DNA of 32,000 bases from Candidatus Heimdallarchaeota archaeon (GTDB lineage Archaea > Asgardarchaeota > Heimdallarchaeia > Heimdallarchaeales > Heimdallarchaeaceae): assembly GCA_030668875.1 (NCBI GenBank), contig DAOVER010000024.1:1-32000 (forward strand), read 5' to 3'. Each line of letters opens with the position of its first letter. Position 1 is the stretch's first letter. The notes beneath the pieces were generated by a model. It was not told the origin of the DNA. It was given only the letters and a program-made list of their open reading frames with translations, and ran no database searches. This document shows positions 13,007 to 31,981 of the stretch, one piece after another. Position numbers and translations under genes: made by a program.

Positions 13007-13912
13007 ATGGAGAATCTATTTCGGTTAAAGCAAGACACAATACCAATCGTACTTATTGGTCTTCAATATGCTGGAAAAACTACACTTGTAAGCTGGTTAA
13101 AGGAGAAACGTTTTACTCGTCCAAAACCTACTGTTGGAGTAGTAGTTGAAAACATAAAAATAGGTGATATACTTTTCAATATTCACGATATATCAGGGCA
13201 AGAAGTTTTTCGAGAAAATATATGGAAGTCCAATATATTAACATCCATGGGAGTTGTTTTTGTTCTTGATTCTTCTGATACTTCAAGGTTAGATGAAGCT
13301 TTCACTTGGTATTGGAAGATGGTAAAGGAATGGTTAATTGAATCTTATTCAGATAAAGCAATTCTCTTTCTAGCTAACAAATCTGATCTGAAAACCGCCC
13401 TTAGTCTAGATGACATAATTAGCAAGATGAAACTGGATGAAATGTCTTCATATCCTAATATTTCTTTCCAATTCTTCAAAACTTCAGTAAGAAATGAAGA
13501 AAACATTGAACTTTCTTTTAAATGGTTTATTTCTAAGATTAAGAGTTTTAGGAAACTTCAATTCAAGAAATTCAAGGCACTCATTGTTTCCGATATTTTT
13601 GGAAATCCGCTATATGTTTATGACCCTGATAAAATTGCACAAGACACCGGAATGTTTGTCGGTTATATTAAAGCTTTGAGTGGGTTTGCAAATGAGATTC
13701 TAGGGCATGAGCAATTTAAAGTTCTGAAAGTTGATACAAACCACTTCTTCATTTCAGAGATTAATGAACACGTTGTGCTCATTGCAGTTGATCAAGAAGA
13801 AGCACTTCCTGAAGCGCGTAGACTATCTATATTGTTACATGAGTATTTAAAAAATAAGAATGTTGATATAACTACAGAATTGAACGTGCTTTTGAGTGAC
13901 TATGTAACATAG
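13007..13912 (+). CDS. Arf-family-like small GTPase fused to a C-terminal longin-like domain
   Basis: GLQYAGKTT, PTVG, HDISGQ, FVLDSSD, ANKSD. Residues ~189-301 follow a beta-beta-alpha-beta-beta-beta-alpha-alpha pattern (LIVSDIFGNPLY..DTGMFVGYIKALSGFANE). Confidence 0.85.
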   Translation: MENLFRLKQDTIPIVLIGLQYAGKTTLVSWLKEKRFTRPKPTVGVVVENIKIGDILFNIHDISGQEVFRENIWKSNILTSMGVVFVLDSSDTSRLDEAFTWYWKMVKEWLIESYSDKAILFLANKSDLKTALSLDDIISKMKLDEMSSYPNISFQFFKTSVRNEENIELSFKWFISKIKSFRKLQFKKFKALIVSDIFGNPLYVYDPDKIAQDTGMFVGYIKALSGFANEILGHEQFKVLKVDTNHFFISEINEHVVLIAVDQEEALPEARRLSILLHEYLKNKNVDITTELNVLLSDYVT

Positions 13913-17079: not shown

Positions 17080-20073
17080 TCACTTCCTTTTCTGATGATC
17101 AGGACAGAGTATCACTGTTTCTTCTTTGAAGAGACTCTTTTTAACTACTTCCTTTCCATGAGTACTACAAACTACTTTTCCGCATTGTGAACATTTCTGA
17201 ATATGATCATTACAGGAAAAATTTTCGCAGAATTCGCATTTCTCTGCATAATCAGTAGAAACAACACTTTTGCAGGATGAGCATACAACAGCATGATTTG
17301 TACAAATTATCTTTTTAGACAATGAACCTTCTATAGTATGATCTTGACATAAAACTTTTCCACAAACACTGCAAACATTAGGAGTGGAAACAAACAACAT
17401 TTTGGAAGATTTCTGTTCTAGACATATTTCACAAAGAAGATGAATTTCAGTGCCTAAAGCTGATTCAGCTATCCCTTTAAGTTGGAGTTTATTGCCTTTC
17501 TCATCTGCTATAGATATTTCTGCGAGGGATACAGGTATATAGATAATTGCGGCATAAATATCTTTAATTTCACTAGCTTTTGGAATGATAAAATCCTTTT
17601 TACTTAGAGTAAAATTACTGTCTTGTAGAAGCTTAACTCTTGGAAATGATTTAAGCTGAGTATCGATTGATTTGATTTTTTCAACCCCTTCCTCAATTTC
17701 CTTTATGTGGTTCTTAATTACTTCTGGACCAAACTTTATTGTTTCTAGAGCTTTATTGTAATCCCCTACCTCACTGTTGCTCTTAAATTTGTATTTGTCT
17801 GTCATCAAAGGTTTTAGAGCAACATAAATTCCCTTAGCTTGTTCAATTTGAGCATGGAATTTCTTCACTCTATTTCTCTTACTATCAATTACTTTGAAAA
17901 TCTCAGTTCTTTCATTTTGCAGTTCTTCTGCCCAGTGATCAATTTCAGCTTTATGTTCTTTTTCGATATTCACTAATCCTTCCTCAACAGATTTCGTCCA
18001 TGCTTGCCCATAGAAGGTTTCATCAACAAGCAACACATCATGAAAGGATTCCAATATTATTTCAGGAGTTCTTTGAATTTCTAACTTTCTGATATTTGAA
18101 GATGTAGCACCATATAAACTACCAAGATTTTTGAGAGGAAGAACTGAAATGAGCTCTTCGAAAACCTCCTCAGCTTGAATAGGTATTGATTTCTGCCCCC
18201 AGATTTCTTCATCTCCTCCAAACTCTATTTTATCAAGTAATGGGAATATTCTTTTGATCGGTAAATCAAGAGTTACTTCTCCCCAACGATCAGCATTTGC
18301 ATAATTTACTCGAATTCTTCGTTTAGCTTTGATTCTGAAATCCAGGTACAAGAATGGTATGTAAGCTAGCTCTAGGTTTTGAGTCCCCAGATAACTTAAT
18401 TTTTTGTTTCCGAAGAATTTTTCCAATAGTTCCTTAAATTCAACAGGTTCGTATTTCAGATACTGATCTTTCATTGTTTTTATTATGTTAGAAAGATCAA
18501 TTAGTTCCACTTCTGGTTCTTTCTCAATGACTTCATGGAAATCATCCTTTGTTTCTGTAGGTAAGGTTTCTAGTCCTTCGGGTTGAGTTTCTGATTCTGA
18601 ATCAGAAGTCTCCGTTTTATCGATTCCTGCTTGTTTATCTAAGAGACTTGTTCTGCTAGAAAACTTTCTTATTGAAGCTAATTCTTTCTCTAAATCATCT
18701 AAACTAAGTTCCTTTGAGATATCCTCTAAATCCATAGAATCGATATCGTGATCATAAGCGCCGATTTGCTTACATAATGTTGGTGGAGGAAAATCATACA
18801 TTTTAGCGACGTCTTCATCTGATAGAGTTTTGTGGACTGAATAGAGTCTGCGAGTGCTTATGTGAACTGGATCAGGGAAGACATCAGGTGAAAGAATGTA
18901 AAATTCACCACTTTTGAATTGTTGTAACTGGTCAACAATGAACCGTGCTTCTGGTTGAGATTGAAGCATGTTATCAACGATTCTGAGATCTTGAGGAGTA
19001 ACAAAACGACCAAAGAAGAAAGTACTCACTTGTCCAAAAGCCTTGTAATCGACATCACTGATATTTTGCGTTGCAACAAGCATTGACAAACCAAATTTAC
19101 GTCCTTGTTTGAATAGTAATTGCAACCATTGTTTCGTTACAGGATTTTTCGGATGAGGGGGTATGAGTTGTGGTGGTCCTGCTAATTCATCTATATAGAA
19201 AATCAATTGAGGATCGGGTGAAGGGTTAGATCTGATGTATGTATAGAGGCTCTGAGCCAAAGTTGTTATGTAAATTTCTCTTAGTCTTAAATTTGTCAAA
19301 GTATTCAGGTAAATTATAGAAATTCTGACTTTGTTAGGATCTGTTGGTGTTATTAGAGTCTGAATTGAGAGTTTTGGCCCTAGATTGAATACTAATGAAG
19401 GTGCTCCAACATTGATAGATTTTATTCTTTTAATCAACGAATCTTTTTCTCTTTGTGAAAGCAGTGTTCGTATATTTTCTGGTAAGTAAGCAACTTCTGT
19501 TTTTATTAAATCAATCAACATCTCAAAATCTGCTATCAGAATATCTTTGAGTAGACACTGTTCAAAAAGCGACACCAAATAAGCTTTAATTGCTCCTCCT
19601 CTTTCAGAATTTAGTTTATAACCCAAAACATTGGCAATGGTTGTTGCTATTCCATCGATAGCAAGAATCTTTTCTTCTCTGTCTAACTCTTGAGGAGGCA
19701 TGATTAGTGGGTTTATAGAAAGAGGTATTCCTTTCTCTGATGCTGGAGTGAAAACAACAATCTCAACCTTATCTTTATACTGTTCAAAAAACTCTTTAGA
19801 GATACCATAAGGCTTCAACTTATCATGTTCCTCAACAATAACAAGACTAGTTATATCCCCTTGTGGATCAATGATAATTGCTGGGATATTATTCCTTACA
19901 GCTTCTTCGATGAGAATCTTACAAACGACAGTTTTTCCTGAACCACTCTGACCAAAAACACTGATGTGTTTGCTCAAAGCTTTAACAGGTAAATAAACAT
20001 CTTCCTGTGTGGAAAATTCTTTTCCAATATGCATTGATGGGTTCTGAGCATTTTTCTCTGGCATCTTCTTCAA
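17080..20073 (-). CDS. HerA/FtsK-superfamily ATPase (DUF87/DUF853-like) with coiled-coil region and Cys/His-rich zinc-finger tail
   Basis: KHISVFGQSGSGKT, IIDPQGD, FYIDE, KQGRKFGLSMLVATQN, DYK, FGR. C-terminal 117 aa hold 15 Cys. TTG start at 20073; alternative ATG at 20064. Confidence 0.85.
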   Translation of the reverse strand: MKKMPEKNAQNPSMHIGKEFSTQEDVYLPVKALSKHISVFGQSGSGKTVVCKILIEEAVRNNIPAIIIDPQGDITSLVIVEEHDKLKPYGISKEFFEQYKDKVEIVVFTPASEKGIPLSINPLIMPPQELDREEKILAIDGIATTIANVLGYKLNSERGGAIKAYLVSLFEQCLLKDILIADFEMLIDLIKTEVAYLPENIRTLLSQREKDSLIKRIKSINVGAPSLVFNLGPKLSIQTLITPTDPNKVRISIIYLNTLTNLRLREIYITTLAQSLYTYIRSNPSPDPQLIFYIDELAGPPQLIPPHPKNPVTKQWLQLLFKQGRKFGLSMLVATQNISDVDYKAFGQVSTFFFGRFVTPQDLRIVDNMLQSQPEARFIVDQLQQFKSGEFYILSPDVFPDPVHISTRRLYSVHKTLSDEDVAKMYDFPPPTLCKQIGAYDHDIDSMDLEDISKELSLDDLEKELASIRKFSSRTSLLDKQAGIDKTETSDSESETQPEGLETLPTETKDDFHEVIEKEPEVELIDLSNIIKTMKDQYLKYEPVEFKELLEKFFGNKKLSYLGTQNLELAYIPFLYLDFRIKAKRRIRVNYANADRWGEVTLDLPIKRIFPLLDKIEFGGDEEIWGQKSIPIQAEEVFEELISVLPLKNLGSLYGATSSNIRKLEIQRTPEIILESFHDVLLVDETFYGQAWTKSVEEGLVNIEKEHKAEIDHWAEELQNERTEIFKVIDSKRNRVKKFHAQIEQAKGIYVALKPLMTDKYKFKSNSEVGDYNKALETIKFGPEVIKNHIKEIEEGVEKIKSIDTQLKSFPRVKLLQDSNFTLSKKDFIIPKASEIKDIYAAIIYIPVSLAEISIADEKGNKLQLKGIAESALGTEIHLLCEICLEQKSSKMLFVSTPNVCSVCGKVLCQDHTIEGSLSKKIICTNHAVVCSSCKSVVSTDYAEKCEFCENFSCNDHIQKCSQCGKVVCSTHGKEVVKKSLFKEETVILCPDHQKRK

Positions 20074-20980: not shown

Positions 20981-21811
20981 CTACTTAAAGGTAGCTCTTG
21001 CAGATATTATATGTGGACTTACTCCTTTTTGGAATCGTACTATAACAACATTGTTTCTGGAAGAATTTTTACCATGAATGCGTGATATTGTACCAGTTAA
21101 TTGCTTACCTGATTTAACATAATTTATGCTTACCTTTCTTCCTAAATAACTGCTAATTGGCAATTCAATATCATGAAGATGTAAAATTACAGATCTATTA
21201 GTTGATTTACCTGATGCATCATGAAGCACAGAATGGACAATTCCATATGTCTTAGACAAAGTAACTTTCTTCTTAGCTTTTGCTTTCTTTTTAGAAGTTT
21301 TAGATTTTATCTTTCGCATAGCTTTTGCTCTTTCAATATACTTTACAGTAGCTGGCGAAACACCTTTCTTCACGGCAATAGTTGCTTTGGGTTTGACTAC
21401 AGGTTTCTTTGTTTCAGATTTTACTGCGGGTTTTTTAACAACGGTTTTCTTTGCTGGAGTTTTAGCGGCTAGTTCAGGTTTTTTAACAGATGGTCGCACG
21501 GATGTTTTCTCTACTTCTTTCTTCAAAGTGGGAGGTTTAGGTATTGTTGCTTTATCTACTGTTTTTACTTTGGATTTAACTTCAGTTTTCTTTGCGGGTG
21601 CTTTAGCAACAGGTTTTTTAGCTGGAGTTAATACTTCGTTTGCACCTAGAATCATTTTTTCAGCAGTTGATTTTCCTATACCAGGTAATTGTGATAACTC
21701 GTCTGCTGAAGCTTTGGCTAGTTTTTCAACTGTGTTGAAACCACAATCTACAAGAGTTTTAGCTGCTTTGGGTCCAATTCCTTTAATATTCTCTATTTCG
21801 TTAATTGCCAT
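20981..21811 (-). CDS. rpl35ae: Tandem HhH domain + Lys/Pro/Ala-rich linker + divergent ribosomal protein eL33 (L35Ae)-like domain
   Basis: IKGIGPKAA...LPGIGKSTAEK HhH pair. C-terminal YLGRKV..SGKQLTGTISRIHG...VVIVRFQKGV matches eL33 (LIGKKV..SGK.I.GKI.R.HG..GVV.ARF.KGL). The symbol refers to the C-terminal domain only; this may be a paralog. Confidence 0.7.
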   Translation of the reverse strand: MAINEIENIKGIGPKAAKTLVDCGFNTVEKLAKASADELSQLPGIGKSTAEKMILGANEVLTPAKKPVAKAPAKKTEVKSKVKTVDKATIPKPPTLKKEVEKTSVRPSVKKPELAAKTPAKKTVVKKPAVKSETKKPVVKPKATIAVKKGVSPATVKYIERAKAMRKIKSKTSKKKAKAKKKVTLSKTYGIVHSVLHDASGKSTNRSVILHLHDIELPISSYLGRKVSINYVKSGKQLTGTISRIHGKNSSRNNVVIVRFQKGVSPHIISARATFK

Positions 21812-27930: not shown

Positions 27931-29337
27931 TTATTCCCTAATTAAGGTATTTGCACCATAGATAAGTTTCTTTGCTGAAGTTATCCCTATACCTCTTATT
28001 TTGCTTAATTCTTCAGGTTTAGAGTTTGCAAGCTGATCAATTGTTTCAACGCCACCATCTTTAAGCAACATAGCAATTTTTTCTCCAACTCCTGATATAT
28101 CTACTATCCTCAGTTCAGCTTTCTTATCTGTAAAAATTTCAGTTGAATCTATTGTTTCTTCTCCATCATCAATAATTTCTATTTCGAATGGTAGAGTTTT
28201 TTTTGCTTTAATTGAAGGTTTACTTACAGACGGGAGTCTTCGAGTTTTCTTTCTTTTACTTCCTGGAGGTGCAGGGATTTTATCTATCTCAGGATCTATC
28301 TTCCTCACAGGATGAATAAAAGCTTCAGATTCATTTCTGATAAGTTCACTCGGCTTTCGAAGATGCTCAACTTCTTCAAATACAGTTTCCTTATCCTTAA
28401 GATAATCTGAAGGTTTTAACAGTCTCTCACTTTTAGGAGGAGTTAGCTTCTGTTCAACTATTTCTTTTTTCTTGGTTGGTTGTTGAACAAGTTTCTTAGT
28501 TTTTGTTTCTGTTTTTACTGTTTCAATAGTTTTCTCATGTGAGAGTTCGCTTGGTTTAACTGTTGTATCAGCCACTGCATCGATTGTTTCTCGCTTTTTC
28601 AGATACTGTGTGGGTTTGAGTATGTCAACAGATTCAACCTTTTTCTCTTTTTTGGGTGAAGGTTTTGTAACAATTGGATCACCCATAATTTTCTTTGGAG
28701 CTTTGGGTTTAATTGCTTCTGGCTCAAAAATTGTATCGCGTTTCTTAATAACATCACTTGGCTTAAGTAGAGTATTTACAAGAGGTGCTTCTGGTTCTTC
28801 TTCCTCTTCTTCTACTTTCACTGGAGGCATTATTGTTACACTAGGAGATATTATCTCGTCTTTTTTAAACAGTTCACTGGGTTTAACAATTTCTGAAGCT
28901 GGAGATACAAGACTTTCAACGTCAGTTGTCATTTCTCTTTTCTTTGAAACAGATTCAAGAGGTTCTTGTACAACTTTGGCTTCTCTAATATCCAAACCAG
29001 AAGAGTGCAATGAGGCACCTTTACCCAAGTTTCTTACTAGTTCAATAAGTTGATAGAAATTGATATTTGTAATACCTACATCTGAAAAATATTCTGCTAA
29101 CCAGTTTGCAAAACGGTGGACATTTACCTCAGATCCTAGCATTTTTTCCCAAAAATTCATTATTATCGTTGTAAGTTGATCAAATGAAGAATATTTATGA
29201 GTCTGTGTTATATGTTTACCATCATATAAATCTAGAACACCTGTCATGTGCTCACTAAATACATTCTCATTTGGTTTGATGACGACACTATATCTATAAC
29301 TTCCAATCAAACTTCTACGTTGTGGTCGCGATGACAT
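27931..29337 (-). CDS. Protein with small N-terminal domain, long disordered linker carrying KPS repeats, and C-terminal tandem HhH
   Basis: ISGVGEKIA...IRGIGITSAKKL HhH pair at aa ~411-465; Lys/Glu/Pro/Thr-rich linker. Confidence 0.8.
   Translation of the reverse strand: MSSRPQRRSLIGSYRYSVVIKPNENVFSEHMTGVLDLYDGKHITQTHKYSSFDQLTTIIMNFWEKMLGSEVNVHRFANWLAEYFSDVGITNINFYQLIELVRNLGKGASLHSSGLDIREAKVVQEPLESVSKKREMTTDVESLVSPASEIVKPSELFKKDEIISPSVTIMPPVKVEEEEEEPEAPLVNTLLKPSDVIKKRDTIFEPEAIKPKAPKKIMGDPIVTKPSPKKEKKVESVDILKPTQYLKKRETIDAVADTTVKPSELSHEKTIETVKTETKTKKLVQQPTKKKEIVEQKLTPPKSERLLKPSDYLKDKETVFEEVEHLRKPSELIRNESEAFIHPVRKIDPEIDKIPAPPGSKRKKTRRLPSVSKPSIKAKKTLPFEIEIIDDGEETIDSTEIFTDKKAELRIVDISGVGEKIAMLLKDGGVETIDQLANSKPEELSKIRGIGITSAKKLIYGANTLIRE
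28336..28890 (-). repeat. Six dispersed peptide repeats, consensus hhKP(S/T)(E/D/Q)h
   Basis: IVKPSELF, LLKPSDVIKKRDTIFE, ILKPTQYLKKRETID, TVKPSELS, LLKPSDYLKDKETVFE, LRKPSELI (aa 150-334). Confidence 0.85.
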
Positions 29338-29438: not shown

Positions 29439-29466
29439 AAAGAAAAAGAAAGGAAAAAGGGAAAAA
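29439..29466 (-). terminator. Pyrimidine/oligo-T terminator after the SLC44-like gene
   Basis: The minus strand reads TTTTTCCCTTTTTCCTTTCTTTTTCTTT just after the stop codon. Confidence 0.5.
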
Positions 29467-29470
29467 TGGT

Positions 29471-30976
29471 TTAGAACTCAGCTGGTTGTTCTTGCTTGTC
29501 AATCTTGTCAGATGACCAAGATGTTCTCTCTTCTTTGTCGTAACTTACCATAATGTTTTCTCTGACTTTAGAGATACTTTCTTGAACATCAGCTGACAAC
29601 CTTGTTTTGCGTCCTGGCTTTCCTCTGAATGGATCTGCGATATAGAAGAATAAGATTGTTTGATATGCTGTATTGAGTGGTTTGAGTAATGCAGACATAG
29701 GCAAATAACCAAAGATGAAGAAGAACACAGCTACAACAGCTCCAAAGAGAGCCAATACACCAACATCAGTTGAGAGCGAAATACCAAACCAATATCGTCC
29801 AACAAAGAAACCTGCTACAACAAATATGGCAAAGGTCATCACTGAGAATAATCCTTTAGCAATATTGACACCAGTTTTTCCTATGATGATATCTGCACCA
29901 GAATCTAATGCTAAATCAGAGGATCTAGCAATGCTTCGAATGAAGCCTTGTTTCTCTACAACTATGATTGTTAAAGTGTAGTAGTTCAGGAATTTAATAA
30001 TCTTGAACAACCATTTGAAGAGCAGTACGAATATGATAAATACCCAGTAAAGCACCTTTTTTATGATAGTAAAAGCTTTATAGAATTTTGAAGTTTCTTT
30101 GATCTTCTTCGCTCCAAAATATTGAACTATTTTTACAATCCAATCAAAGAATGCCATGAACATTCCAAACATTACTATGCTTCCTTTTACTTTCCAAACT
30201 TCCTTCATAGCATAACGAATACTTGCTTCTTTGTAATTATTCCATCTTTTGAACATGCAAATATTGATAGCATCAAGGAAGTACATTGTTGTCCAGTAAA
30301 TTGCCAGATACACATAAATAACAAGGAATAACACTAACCATTGAACCCATGTTTCTTGATCACTTAACCAGGATAGGTTAATGACCCACACACTTGCTGC
30401 AGCTCCAAGAATGAATATTATAATTGATGCAACAGCAAAAATCAGAATAGGAATCAACGTACGTTTATTTTCATTTACTGCTTCACAGCTTGTTTCGAAT
30501 ATTTTAGCTCCAAGAACTATTCTTCTTGAAACTAGAAGTATCACTACTATAAGCATAGCAGCAAGAGCTACTACGCCAATCCCTATCCAGATCGGTTTTA
30601 AGCCTATTATACAGTATATACCTCCACCTAAGATTACTAGAGGAATTCCAAATACAACTACACTAACAAATTCAGCACCAACAAAACTCATAATCCATAT
30701 TTCTAGATATGCTAGCAAAATTCCAATTAGGAACAAAGCAGCGACACCACCGATTATCCAGTATTTCATTGCTTCTAAATCTGGAACTAGAACTGGAACT
30801 GTTGAGATATCTATATCAGCTATGAAAGCAATTGCATAATCTAAAAAACCAATACCCTCACTGGCAAAGTTTGTGATAGCATAAATCCCTAAGGCTAATG
30901 CTGCAAAAGCTAAAAGAGACCATAAGTAAAAGAATAATCCAAAATCTCTTACTCTTTTTTCTTCTTGTTCAGTCAT
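29471..30976 (-). CDS. Choline transporter-like (SLC44/CTL/Pns1 family) membrane protein
   Basis: RVRDF, RRIVLGAKIFETSCEAV, GSIVMFG, IKFLN and GFIRSIARSSDL occur in the same order and spacing as SLC44 motifs (R..D, KRI..A..L..EAS.AV, GSLAFG, IKFLN, FC.SA..AF.L); about 10 TM segments. Confidence 0.8.
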   Translation of the reverse strand: MTEQEEKRVRDFGLFFYLWSLLAFAALALGIYAITNFASEGIGFLDYAIAFIADIDISTVPVLVPDLEAMKYWIIGGVAALFLIGILLAYLEIWIMSFVGAEFVSVVVFGIPLVILGGGIYCIIGLKPIWIGIGVVALAAMLIVVILLVSRRIVLGAKIFETSCEAVNENKRTLIPILIFAVASIIIFILGAAASVWVINLSWLSDQETWVQWLVLFLVIYVYLAIYWTTMYFLDAINICMFKRWNNYKEASIRYAMKEVWKVKGSIVMFGMFMAFFDWIVKIVQYFGAKKIKETSKFYKAFTIIKKVLYWVFIIFVLLFKWLFKIIKFLNYYTLTIIVVEKQGFIRSIARSSDLALDSGADIIIGKTGVNIAKGLFSVMTFAIFVVAGFFVGRYWFGISLSTDVGVLALFGAVVAVFFFIFGYLPMSALLKPLNTAYQTILFFYIADPFRGKPGRKTRLSADVQESISKVRENIMVSYDKEERTSWSSDKIDKQEQPAEF

Positions 30977-31072: not shown

Positions 31073-31981
31073 GTGAAGGTTGACCTTAATATTATTAGTC
31101 ATGCAGTTTTAGATGATAAAATGTTTTTCACAGAAACGGGGAAAAAAGAAGTGAAAAATCAATTAGGGGGACCAGTTTCTTTTGCCTCTACTATTTTTCC
31201 TGTTTTATCAATTAAAGGGAGATGTATAACTACAATTGGAAGAGATTTTCCAAAGGAGTACTTAGAGTATTTTTCACAAATCAAAAATTACCATTTTGAG
31301 TATGAATTTAGTGAAAAAACAACACGTTTCCTCCACAAAATTTACGAAAACTTTAGATTTTTATATTTATTAGAACAAGCATCAAATTTAGACGAATACA
31401 TTACAGAATTTCCAGGCGCTAAAGGTTGTTTGATATCTCCTATTTATCATGAGGTTACATCAAAAACAGTAGATTGGGCATGTGAAGAACATGATTATAT
31501 TGGAATAGATGTTCAAGGTTTTATGAGAGGTTTAGATGTAAATAACAAAATAGTTCTTCTATACAATCCACAAATATTATCAGAGTTAACTAAAAATGCA
31601 AGTTTCGTAAAATATTCTCTGAATGAAGCACAACATTATACCCAGAAGAAATCCTATATGGAAATCTTGGAAGGATTACCCTCTAATAATACACAAATAG
31701 TAACACTTGGTAGTGAAGGATTACTTTTTTCAAAAAATGAACAATACTACAAATTATCAGCCCCATATAGAATAGAAAGAGACCCTACAGGAGCTGGTGA
31801 TGTACTTGTATCAGGCATTTTATCAAAATTAGTAGAAACAGGTGATCTTGAAATATCGATTGCTTTTGGTATGGCTCTTGCTGCAGAAAAAGTACAGATG
31901 AATAGATTGCAACCCTTAGCTTCCAATGATTATATGAAGATAGCAGAAAAAATACTTGAATCTTTGGAACAATTAAGATAA
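31073..31981 (+). CDS. PfkB/ribokinase-family carbohydrate kinase
   Basis: GGPVSF, IGRDF, IVTLGSEG and DPTGAGD catalytic motif; GTG start. Confidence 0.9.
   Translation: MKVDLNIISHAVLDDKMFFTETGKKEVKNQLGGPVSFASTIFPVLSIKGRCITTIGRDFPKEYLEYFSQIKNYHFEYEFSEKTTRFLHKIYENFRFLYLLEQASNLDEYITEFPGAKGCLISPIYHEVTSKTVDWACEEHDYIGIDVQGFMRGLDVNNKIVLLYNPQILSELTKNASFVKYSLNEAQHYTQKKSYMEILEGLPSNNTQIVTLGSEGLLFSKNEQYYKLSAPYRIERDPTGAGDVLVSGILSKLVETGDLEISIAFGMALAAEKVQMNRLQPLASNDYMKIAEKILESLEQLR

Follow-up and report, generated by a model that had tools for sequence, protein, structure and literature searches.

The stretch of DNA analysed here (the window; 32,000 nucleotides) almost certainly encodes, in a genome of the Asgard family Heimdallarchaeaceae, a real full-length protein of the CTL/SLC44/PNS1 family. 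The family is known; the prokaryotic branch to which the protein, P0001, belongs is unstudied, apart from one listing in a preprint. We give a probability of about 50% to the reading that P0001 would be an outward-open, phospholipid-binding and membrane-deforming protein and not a choline importer. Its gene comprises the following features:

29471..30976, minus strand: whole open reading frame of P0001, a CTL/PNS1-like membrane protein with ten transmembrane (TM) helices; 501 aa, ATG start
30533..30976, minus strand: residues 1-148, helices M1-M4, which lie at the periphery and have a short loop without Cys between M1 and M2, from HMM-HMM comparison with eukaryotic CTL/PNS1
29624..30532, minus strand: residues 149-451, a DUF6159/CysZ-like core of three amphipathic helices and three hairpins (M5-M10), from profile and model overlay
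29440..29470, minus strand: T-rich tract directly after the stop codon, by its sequence a possible archaeal oligo(dT) terminator

The multi-TM reading frame described in an earlier sequence-only reading stands at its length, position and strand, with ten hydrophobic segments and loop charges that for the most part agree with a CTL topology in which both termini are inside. In comparison with four orthologs, changes at third codon positions dominate (32/21/95 and 44/29/128 by codon position), a pattern that indicates purifying selection on the gene. Its GC content is 0.35 (genome, 0.34), it is the sole PF04515 match in the host genome, and the nearest named homologs of P0001 all belong to Heimdallarchaeaceae or Heimdallarchaeota. 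Sigma-70 promoter matches are no more than expected by chance.

The homology to SLC44/CTL, proposed earlier from motifs, is borne out by profile, HMM-HMM and fold comparison. PF04515 matches P0001 with E=2.8e-13 and 50.2 bits (cut-off 26.9), covering model positions 3-325 of 326. Against the PDB, a profile built from 101 Asgard sequences (A3) found yeast PNS1 (7e-22, nearly full length) and human CTL1 (4.6e-10) and no further significant match; this broad profile alone succeeded, as PDB searches with a single sequence or a family-only profile gave no match. Only close relatives came back when the broad alignment was used in a word-based search, and viral contigs searched with a eukaryotic CTL motif gave no match. 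The template-free AlphaFold2 model of P0001 has a pLDDT of 86 and a pTM of 0.85 (an earlier model from 30 close sequences, with a pLDDT of 62, was poor and not used). With this model Foldseek returned PNS1 at E=5.5e-9, only PNS1 and CTL1 falling under E=0.001, and the VIA overlays gave Z=26.6 for PNS1 (406 residues, rmsd 5.3), Z=23.9 for CTL1 and, next, Z=9.8 for CysZ; the Atlas structure match is a eukaryotic CTL1 (TM 0.72). The PNS1 and CTL1 structures were released in 2022-2025, presumably later than the AlphaFold2 training set, and the match of the model to them is therefore unlikely to be memorised.

Both motifs on which the first assignment relied are present, GSIVMFG beginning at residue 265 and IKFLN at residue 327, and two eukaryotic CTLs taken from metagenomes have IKFLN in exactly this form. 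The equation of GSIVMFG with eukaryotic GSxxFG holds only in part: the GS pair aligns, but the FG is one residue off register, and F270 aligns with an invariant eukaryotic Gly (PNS1 G343). The GS pair is typical of Heimdallarchaeaceae members and not of all Asgard members. Of the eukaryotic motifs GSxxFG and NxxA[YF]xx[VI]AxYG, P0001 keeps the G, S and N, while the second Gly, the Ala and the YG are replaced.

Like Saccharomyces cerevisiae PNS1 (9F63) and other PNS1-type proteins, P0001 has ten TM helices, three amphipathic helices, no ectodomain and a similar length. Identity to PNS1 is about 14-15%, and matching positions include R152 (PNS1 R206), G265-S266, N331 and D448. P0001 does not have the eukaryotic A-x-x-[VI]AxYG motif; in its place stands TL..I.VEK.GF, nearer DUF6159. 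Human CTL1/SLC44A1 (7WWB, 9QU3) and the animal CTL1-5 proteins share the fold, but P0001 has neither their disulfide-rich ectodomain nor their Cys-rich M8. Its M1-M2 loop is about 35 residues long and the whole protein holds 3 Cys, in agreement with the earlier observation that the large Cys-rich extracellular loop and Cys-rich helix are absent. The description of P0001 as a minimal ancestral form is weakened, as this form is no archaeal peculiarity: yeast PNS1 likewise lacks the ectodomain (PMC13160678), many eukaryotic PNS1-type reading frames are 460-490 aa (though some may be partial), and the minimal unit is the bacterial DUF6159 core of about 280 aa.

In the predicted structure P0001 has the CTL bowl, formed by the M5-M10 hairpins on three amphipathic helices, with M1-M4 peripheral. 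In HMM-HMM comparison M1-M4 match the eukaryotic M1-M4 (96%, E=4.9e-9, score 53), controls with other TM stretches and with reversed and shuffled profiles scoring 10-16. These four helices are common to the Asgard protein and eukaryotic CTL/PNS1 and are missing from bacterial DUF6159; bacterial matches to the Asgard profile start near position 135. The overlay with CysZ (3TX3) is confined to residues 153-453 of the P0001 model. CysZ shares the core fold but lacks M1-M4, gave no sequence match, and differs in its reported oligomer and topology.

DUF6159 (PF19656), present in bacteria and some archaea, shares with P0001 the M8-AH3-M9 pattern and a homologous core that begins at the first amphipathic helix and ends with M10, but with six TM helices it covers only profile positions ~137-435. 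It is frequent in bacteria (709 matches). The weakest match in an all-domain search was a 284-aa DUF6159 protein, and the nearest Atlas clusters outside PF04515 are short as well (298-354 aa). Among 503 sampled bacterial genomes of three phyla, a sample and no census, 54 match and none has M1-M4 in frame with the core. The tally counts two unpublished genomes, G549 and G449, on which none of our claims depends. In one Actinomycetota cluster (314 aa) the alignment starts at residue 97, and M3-M4 may be part of it. HMM-HMM comparison gave 99.7% for Asgard versus eukaryotic proteins (365 columns) and 99.6% for Asgard versus DUF6159 (264 columns), whereas eukaryotic proteins and DUF6159 compared directly reached 29.8%. 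Therefore, the Asgard proteins bridge DUF6159 and eukaryotic CTL. The profile of the host family alone reached 98.6% against eukaryotes and 57% against DUF6159; PF19656 does not match P0001 and matches 10 of 56 Asgard relatives. GPDPase_memb, DUF7544, DUF7847 and DUF975 weakly match the same core, which suggests that they form a wider prokaryotic superfamily with it. Our literature search found no mention of DUF6159. The earlier label of eukaryotic-signature protein may apply to the ten-TM form, which was not seen in the sampled bacteria; the signature is the ten-helix architecture rather than the fold as a whole.

Based on our survey of 399 Asgard genomes, PF04515 matches 136 and A3 matches 180, seven of the latter being weak (short-type or partial). 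A CTL-like gene is accordingly encoded in about 173 genomes from 16 families, nearly always as a single copy, and in 28 of the 29 other genomes of the host's family. Named distant homologs come from Hodarchaeales and from Thor-, Hermod-, Njord- and Promethearchaeota, and two genomes of family f19, both closed (4.36 and 6.04 Mb), encode the gene. Further homologs adjoin archaeal genes, namely FEN1, E1/E2 with a P-stalk protein, and HMG-CoA reductase. Homolog P0079 (L248:1755-3181) has an E1-like (ThiF) and an E2 (UQ_con) gene beside it. In the largest family sampled (f20), none of 135 genomes has a PF04515 or Asgard-profile match, suggesting a clean loss. PF04515 also had no match in 14 control genomes, of which at least four are archaeal, a small scope for non-Asgard archaea. 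The f19 genomes carry both a long CTL-like gene and a short DUF6159-type gene. Short DUF6159-type genes (L205-L208, L214 and L204; families f19 and f32) group with bacterial sequences and were possibly acquired separately.

In every tree, the eukaryotic sequences form one clade and DUF6159 together with the short Asgard copies another (100/100), both with full support, and the long Asgard proteins, including P0001, fall outside both and are not nested among bacterial sequences. The eukaryotic CTLs used were metagenome sequences picked by motif pattern, of which one matches PNS1 and some may be partial. A second paralog lineage in Heimdallarchaeia (f4b: P0070, P0090 and L227-229), comes from family f4, which belongs to the host's order. 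In two trees it joins the eukaryotes, and it has the Asp of PNS1 D432; one genome, G050, has both paralogs. Support for eukaryotes with f4b was 96/96 without an outgroup and 55/91 with one, and because of this drop we rejected a firm sister relationship. The tree stems are long (2.1-2.8 changes per site), and AU tests rejected neither Asgard monophyly (p-AU 0.33) nor a grouping of eukaryotes with the clade of P0001 (p-AU 0.33). Therefore, the trees fix no attachment point for the eukaryotes. CTL1-5 types, which carry the ectodomain, branch among the PNS1-type sequences, consistent with an ancestor that had none. One tentative scenario, which we rate as possible though on the unlikely side, is that eukaryotic CTL/SLC44 could be an Asgard invention of a DUF6159 core plus four helices that recruited lipids and shaped membranes before organelles existed, with f4b as the closest living kin and the activity kept from Asgard archaea to humans.

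Several other genes of the window were examined:

27931..29337, minus strand: 468-aa protein directly downstream of the CTL gene; a linker rich in Pro, Lys and Glu holds six KP[ST][DEQ] repeats, and an HhH_5 domain forms the C-terminus
31073..31981, plus strand: PfkB-family kinase, divergent from the CTL gene (Pfam and locus comparison)
20981-21811, minus strand: protein with an N-terminal HhH, a linker rich in Lys and Ala, and a C-terminal domain without a Pfam match that looks, by eye, like ribosomal L35Ae
13007-13912, plus strand: small GTPase, Arf-like (E=7.7e-32); its C-terminus shows a weak longin-like match
17080-20073, minus strand: HerA/DUF87 ATPase of 997 aa; it contains a coiled-coil region, and its Cys-rich C-terminus resembles a zinc finger

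The order PfkB-CTL-HhH is kept across the host family (14 and 18 loci) and not beyond it, so gene order carries little functional weight. A conserved operon was rejected, as the neighbours change between families. At one locus the f4b homolog P0090 (L053/L054:3692-8068) lies within ~6 kb of PssA-like, Psd, HMG-CoA synthase, thiolase and DUF35 genes.

The sequence-only reading could not tell whether such a protein had been reported before. A preprint mentions, in one line, a structural cluster of Asgard and eukaryotic proteins named 'CTL/PNS1-like choline transporter' (bioRxiv 10.64898/2026.10.28.762692), and as described there this is very likely the family of P0001. In that preprint the cluster lies outside the 15 families presented as new signature proteins, which suggests, by elimination, that it was counted as the sibling of a catalogued family; its main text gives neither a phylogeny nor a pocket analysis and makes no connection to DUF6159. 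The family is not mentioned in Koestlbacher 2026 (main text) or in the supplements of Eme 2023 and of the Koestlbacher preprint, as far as covered (the supplements possibly in part), and our literature search found no dedicated study of Asgard CTL proteins. The choline transporters of PMC7997004 are DMT-family proteins and were rejected as CTLs. Interest in P0001 is limited in that the link was listed once before, Pfam annotates the domain automatically, and the tree does not settle the origin. What our analysis adds is the DUF6159-Asgard-eukaryote series, a correction concerning choline, and a charge-reversed cavity.

The predicted cavity of P0001, placed by profile alignment with PNS1 and CTL1, would be lined by D235, K321, K325, K328, F329, Y332, K367, N371, K432 and Q439. 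Human CTL1 W487, K491, N494 (the cavity face of M8) and N533 align with K321, K325, K328 and K367. At each of these positions 29-30 of the 30 family members have Lys or Arg (column counts, like the trees, exclude locus L221). CTL1 Y495 aligns with the invariant F329. The ethanolamine-contacting acidic pair of CTL1, D537/D595, is not conserved; it aligns with N/S/G371 and K/Q/R439, and PNS1 likewise lacks this pair of the PE1 site. The one invariant acid, D235, when aligned to PNS1 M6, would face this region too. The cavity is Lys-rich in P0001 and mixed Arg/Glu/Asp in PNS1. Cavity residues differ between PNS1 and CTL1 too, and they vary from one Asgard family to another (28 of 60 other sequences have Glu at position 367), so ligands may differ among these families. 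For P0001, the basic predicted cavity favours a phosphate-bearing ligand over the choline cation.

The outward-open bowl of CTL1 and PNS1 fits no known transport cycle (PMC13160678), and CTL1 was found to hold PE in the cavity and PS/PI/PA elsewhere, to transport no choline and, in simulation, to thin and deform the membrane (bioRxiv 10.64898/2026.10.02.755950). If these structures are a guide, both termini and the amphipathic helices of P0001 would be cytoplasmic and the bowl would be open toward the outer leaflet and closed below. It would not carry choline by alternating access; instead, phospholipid head groups may be drawn into the polar bowl, and the bilayer thinned or bent locally, as proposed for human CTL1. 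With lysines lining the bowl, anionic head groups would be likelier, such as those of archaetidylserine or of inositol- or glycerol-phosphate lipids. The host genome encodes an adjacent PssA-like and Psd pair on a separate contig, making the synthesis of serine and ethanolamine lipids possible. Against this reading, the lipid data for CTL1 come from one preprint, with membrane deformation seen in simulation, and no lipid gene is a conserved neighbour of the CTL gene in the compared loci.

The same basic cavity could instead line the entry of a CysZ-like permease or channel for sulfate, phosphate, a metabolite or another anion or phosphorylated solute, which we consider unlikely. After PNS1 and CTL1, the core is structurally nearest to CysZ, a divergent PfkB kinase gene accompanies the CTL gene in 14 family loci, and there is a weak likeness to SLC25 carriers (Z 6.7-6.8). 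Human SLC44A4, moreover, is a reported thiamine pyrophosphate carrier. However, Z values under ~13 are weak for helical bundles, and the PfkB association is confined to the host family. Toward the cytoplasm, the bowls of both CTL1 and PNS1 are closed, and the authors of that work find the CysZ topology hard to reconcile with them (PMC13160678).

It is improbable that P0001 is mainly a scaffold or chaperone for the sorting or assembly of membrane proteins, with lipid binding secondary. [quoted passage not shown] However, the fusion is lineage-restricted and absent from P0001, no partner was identified, and the conserved charged residues map by alignment to the cavity. In G133 (L215:6966-13079, minus strand) a reading frame of 2037 aa has an N-terminal multi-pass membrane domain and the solenoid (Adaptin_N E=3.9e-15) and ends in the CTL-like domain; the fusion also occurs in G135, and the G142 version is 1058 aa.

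Uptake of choline or ethanolamine, the function implied by the sequence-only reading, is quite improbable as well. The Pfam name of PF04515 and older reports of uptake by CTL1/2 (PMC8081925) speak for it. A glycerophosphodiester phosphodiesterase gene lies 4.8 kb away, but it is not shared among the compared loci, including one long family locus (L050). The genome also has one Choline_kinase-family match elsewhere, a model that matches 7 of the 14 controls too. In oocytes, CTL1, PNS1 and CherI took up neither choline nor ethanolamine (PMC13160678), and PNS1 and CHTL-1 had previously been reported not to transport choline. The characterisation of SLC44 as choline/ethanolamine transporters, taken as known in that reading, is now disputed family-wide (PMC13160678; bioRxiv 10.64898/2026.10.02.755950), and a Lys-rich cavity without the acidic pair of CTL1 disfavours a cation. 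Finally, that the CTL gene is a eukaryotic gene gained by transfer or bin contamination is very improbable, having in its favour only that the family is mostly eukaryotic in the literature, and a recent transfer is refuted by the spread across Asgard families, the synteny within the family, the host-like GC and a long 100/100 branch separating P0001 from all eukaryotic sequences.

The function of SLC44/CTL proteins has been open for more than twenty years, and two 2026 studies removed choline transport as the answer. Where CTL proteins are lost, myelin lipids, hearing, trafficking in plants and autophagy in yeast are affected. A prokaryotic CTL that is poor in Cys and has no ectodomain and, beside it, the six-helix DUF6159 offer a simple series for tests of lipid binding, scrambling, membrane thinning and transport. 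The family of P0001 adds a candidate for lipid handling to the eukaryote-like inventory of Asgard archaea and suggests a class of function for DUF6159.
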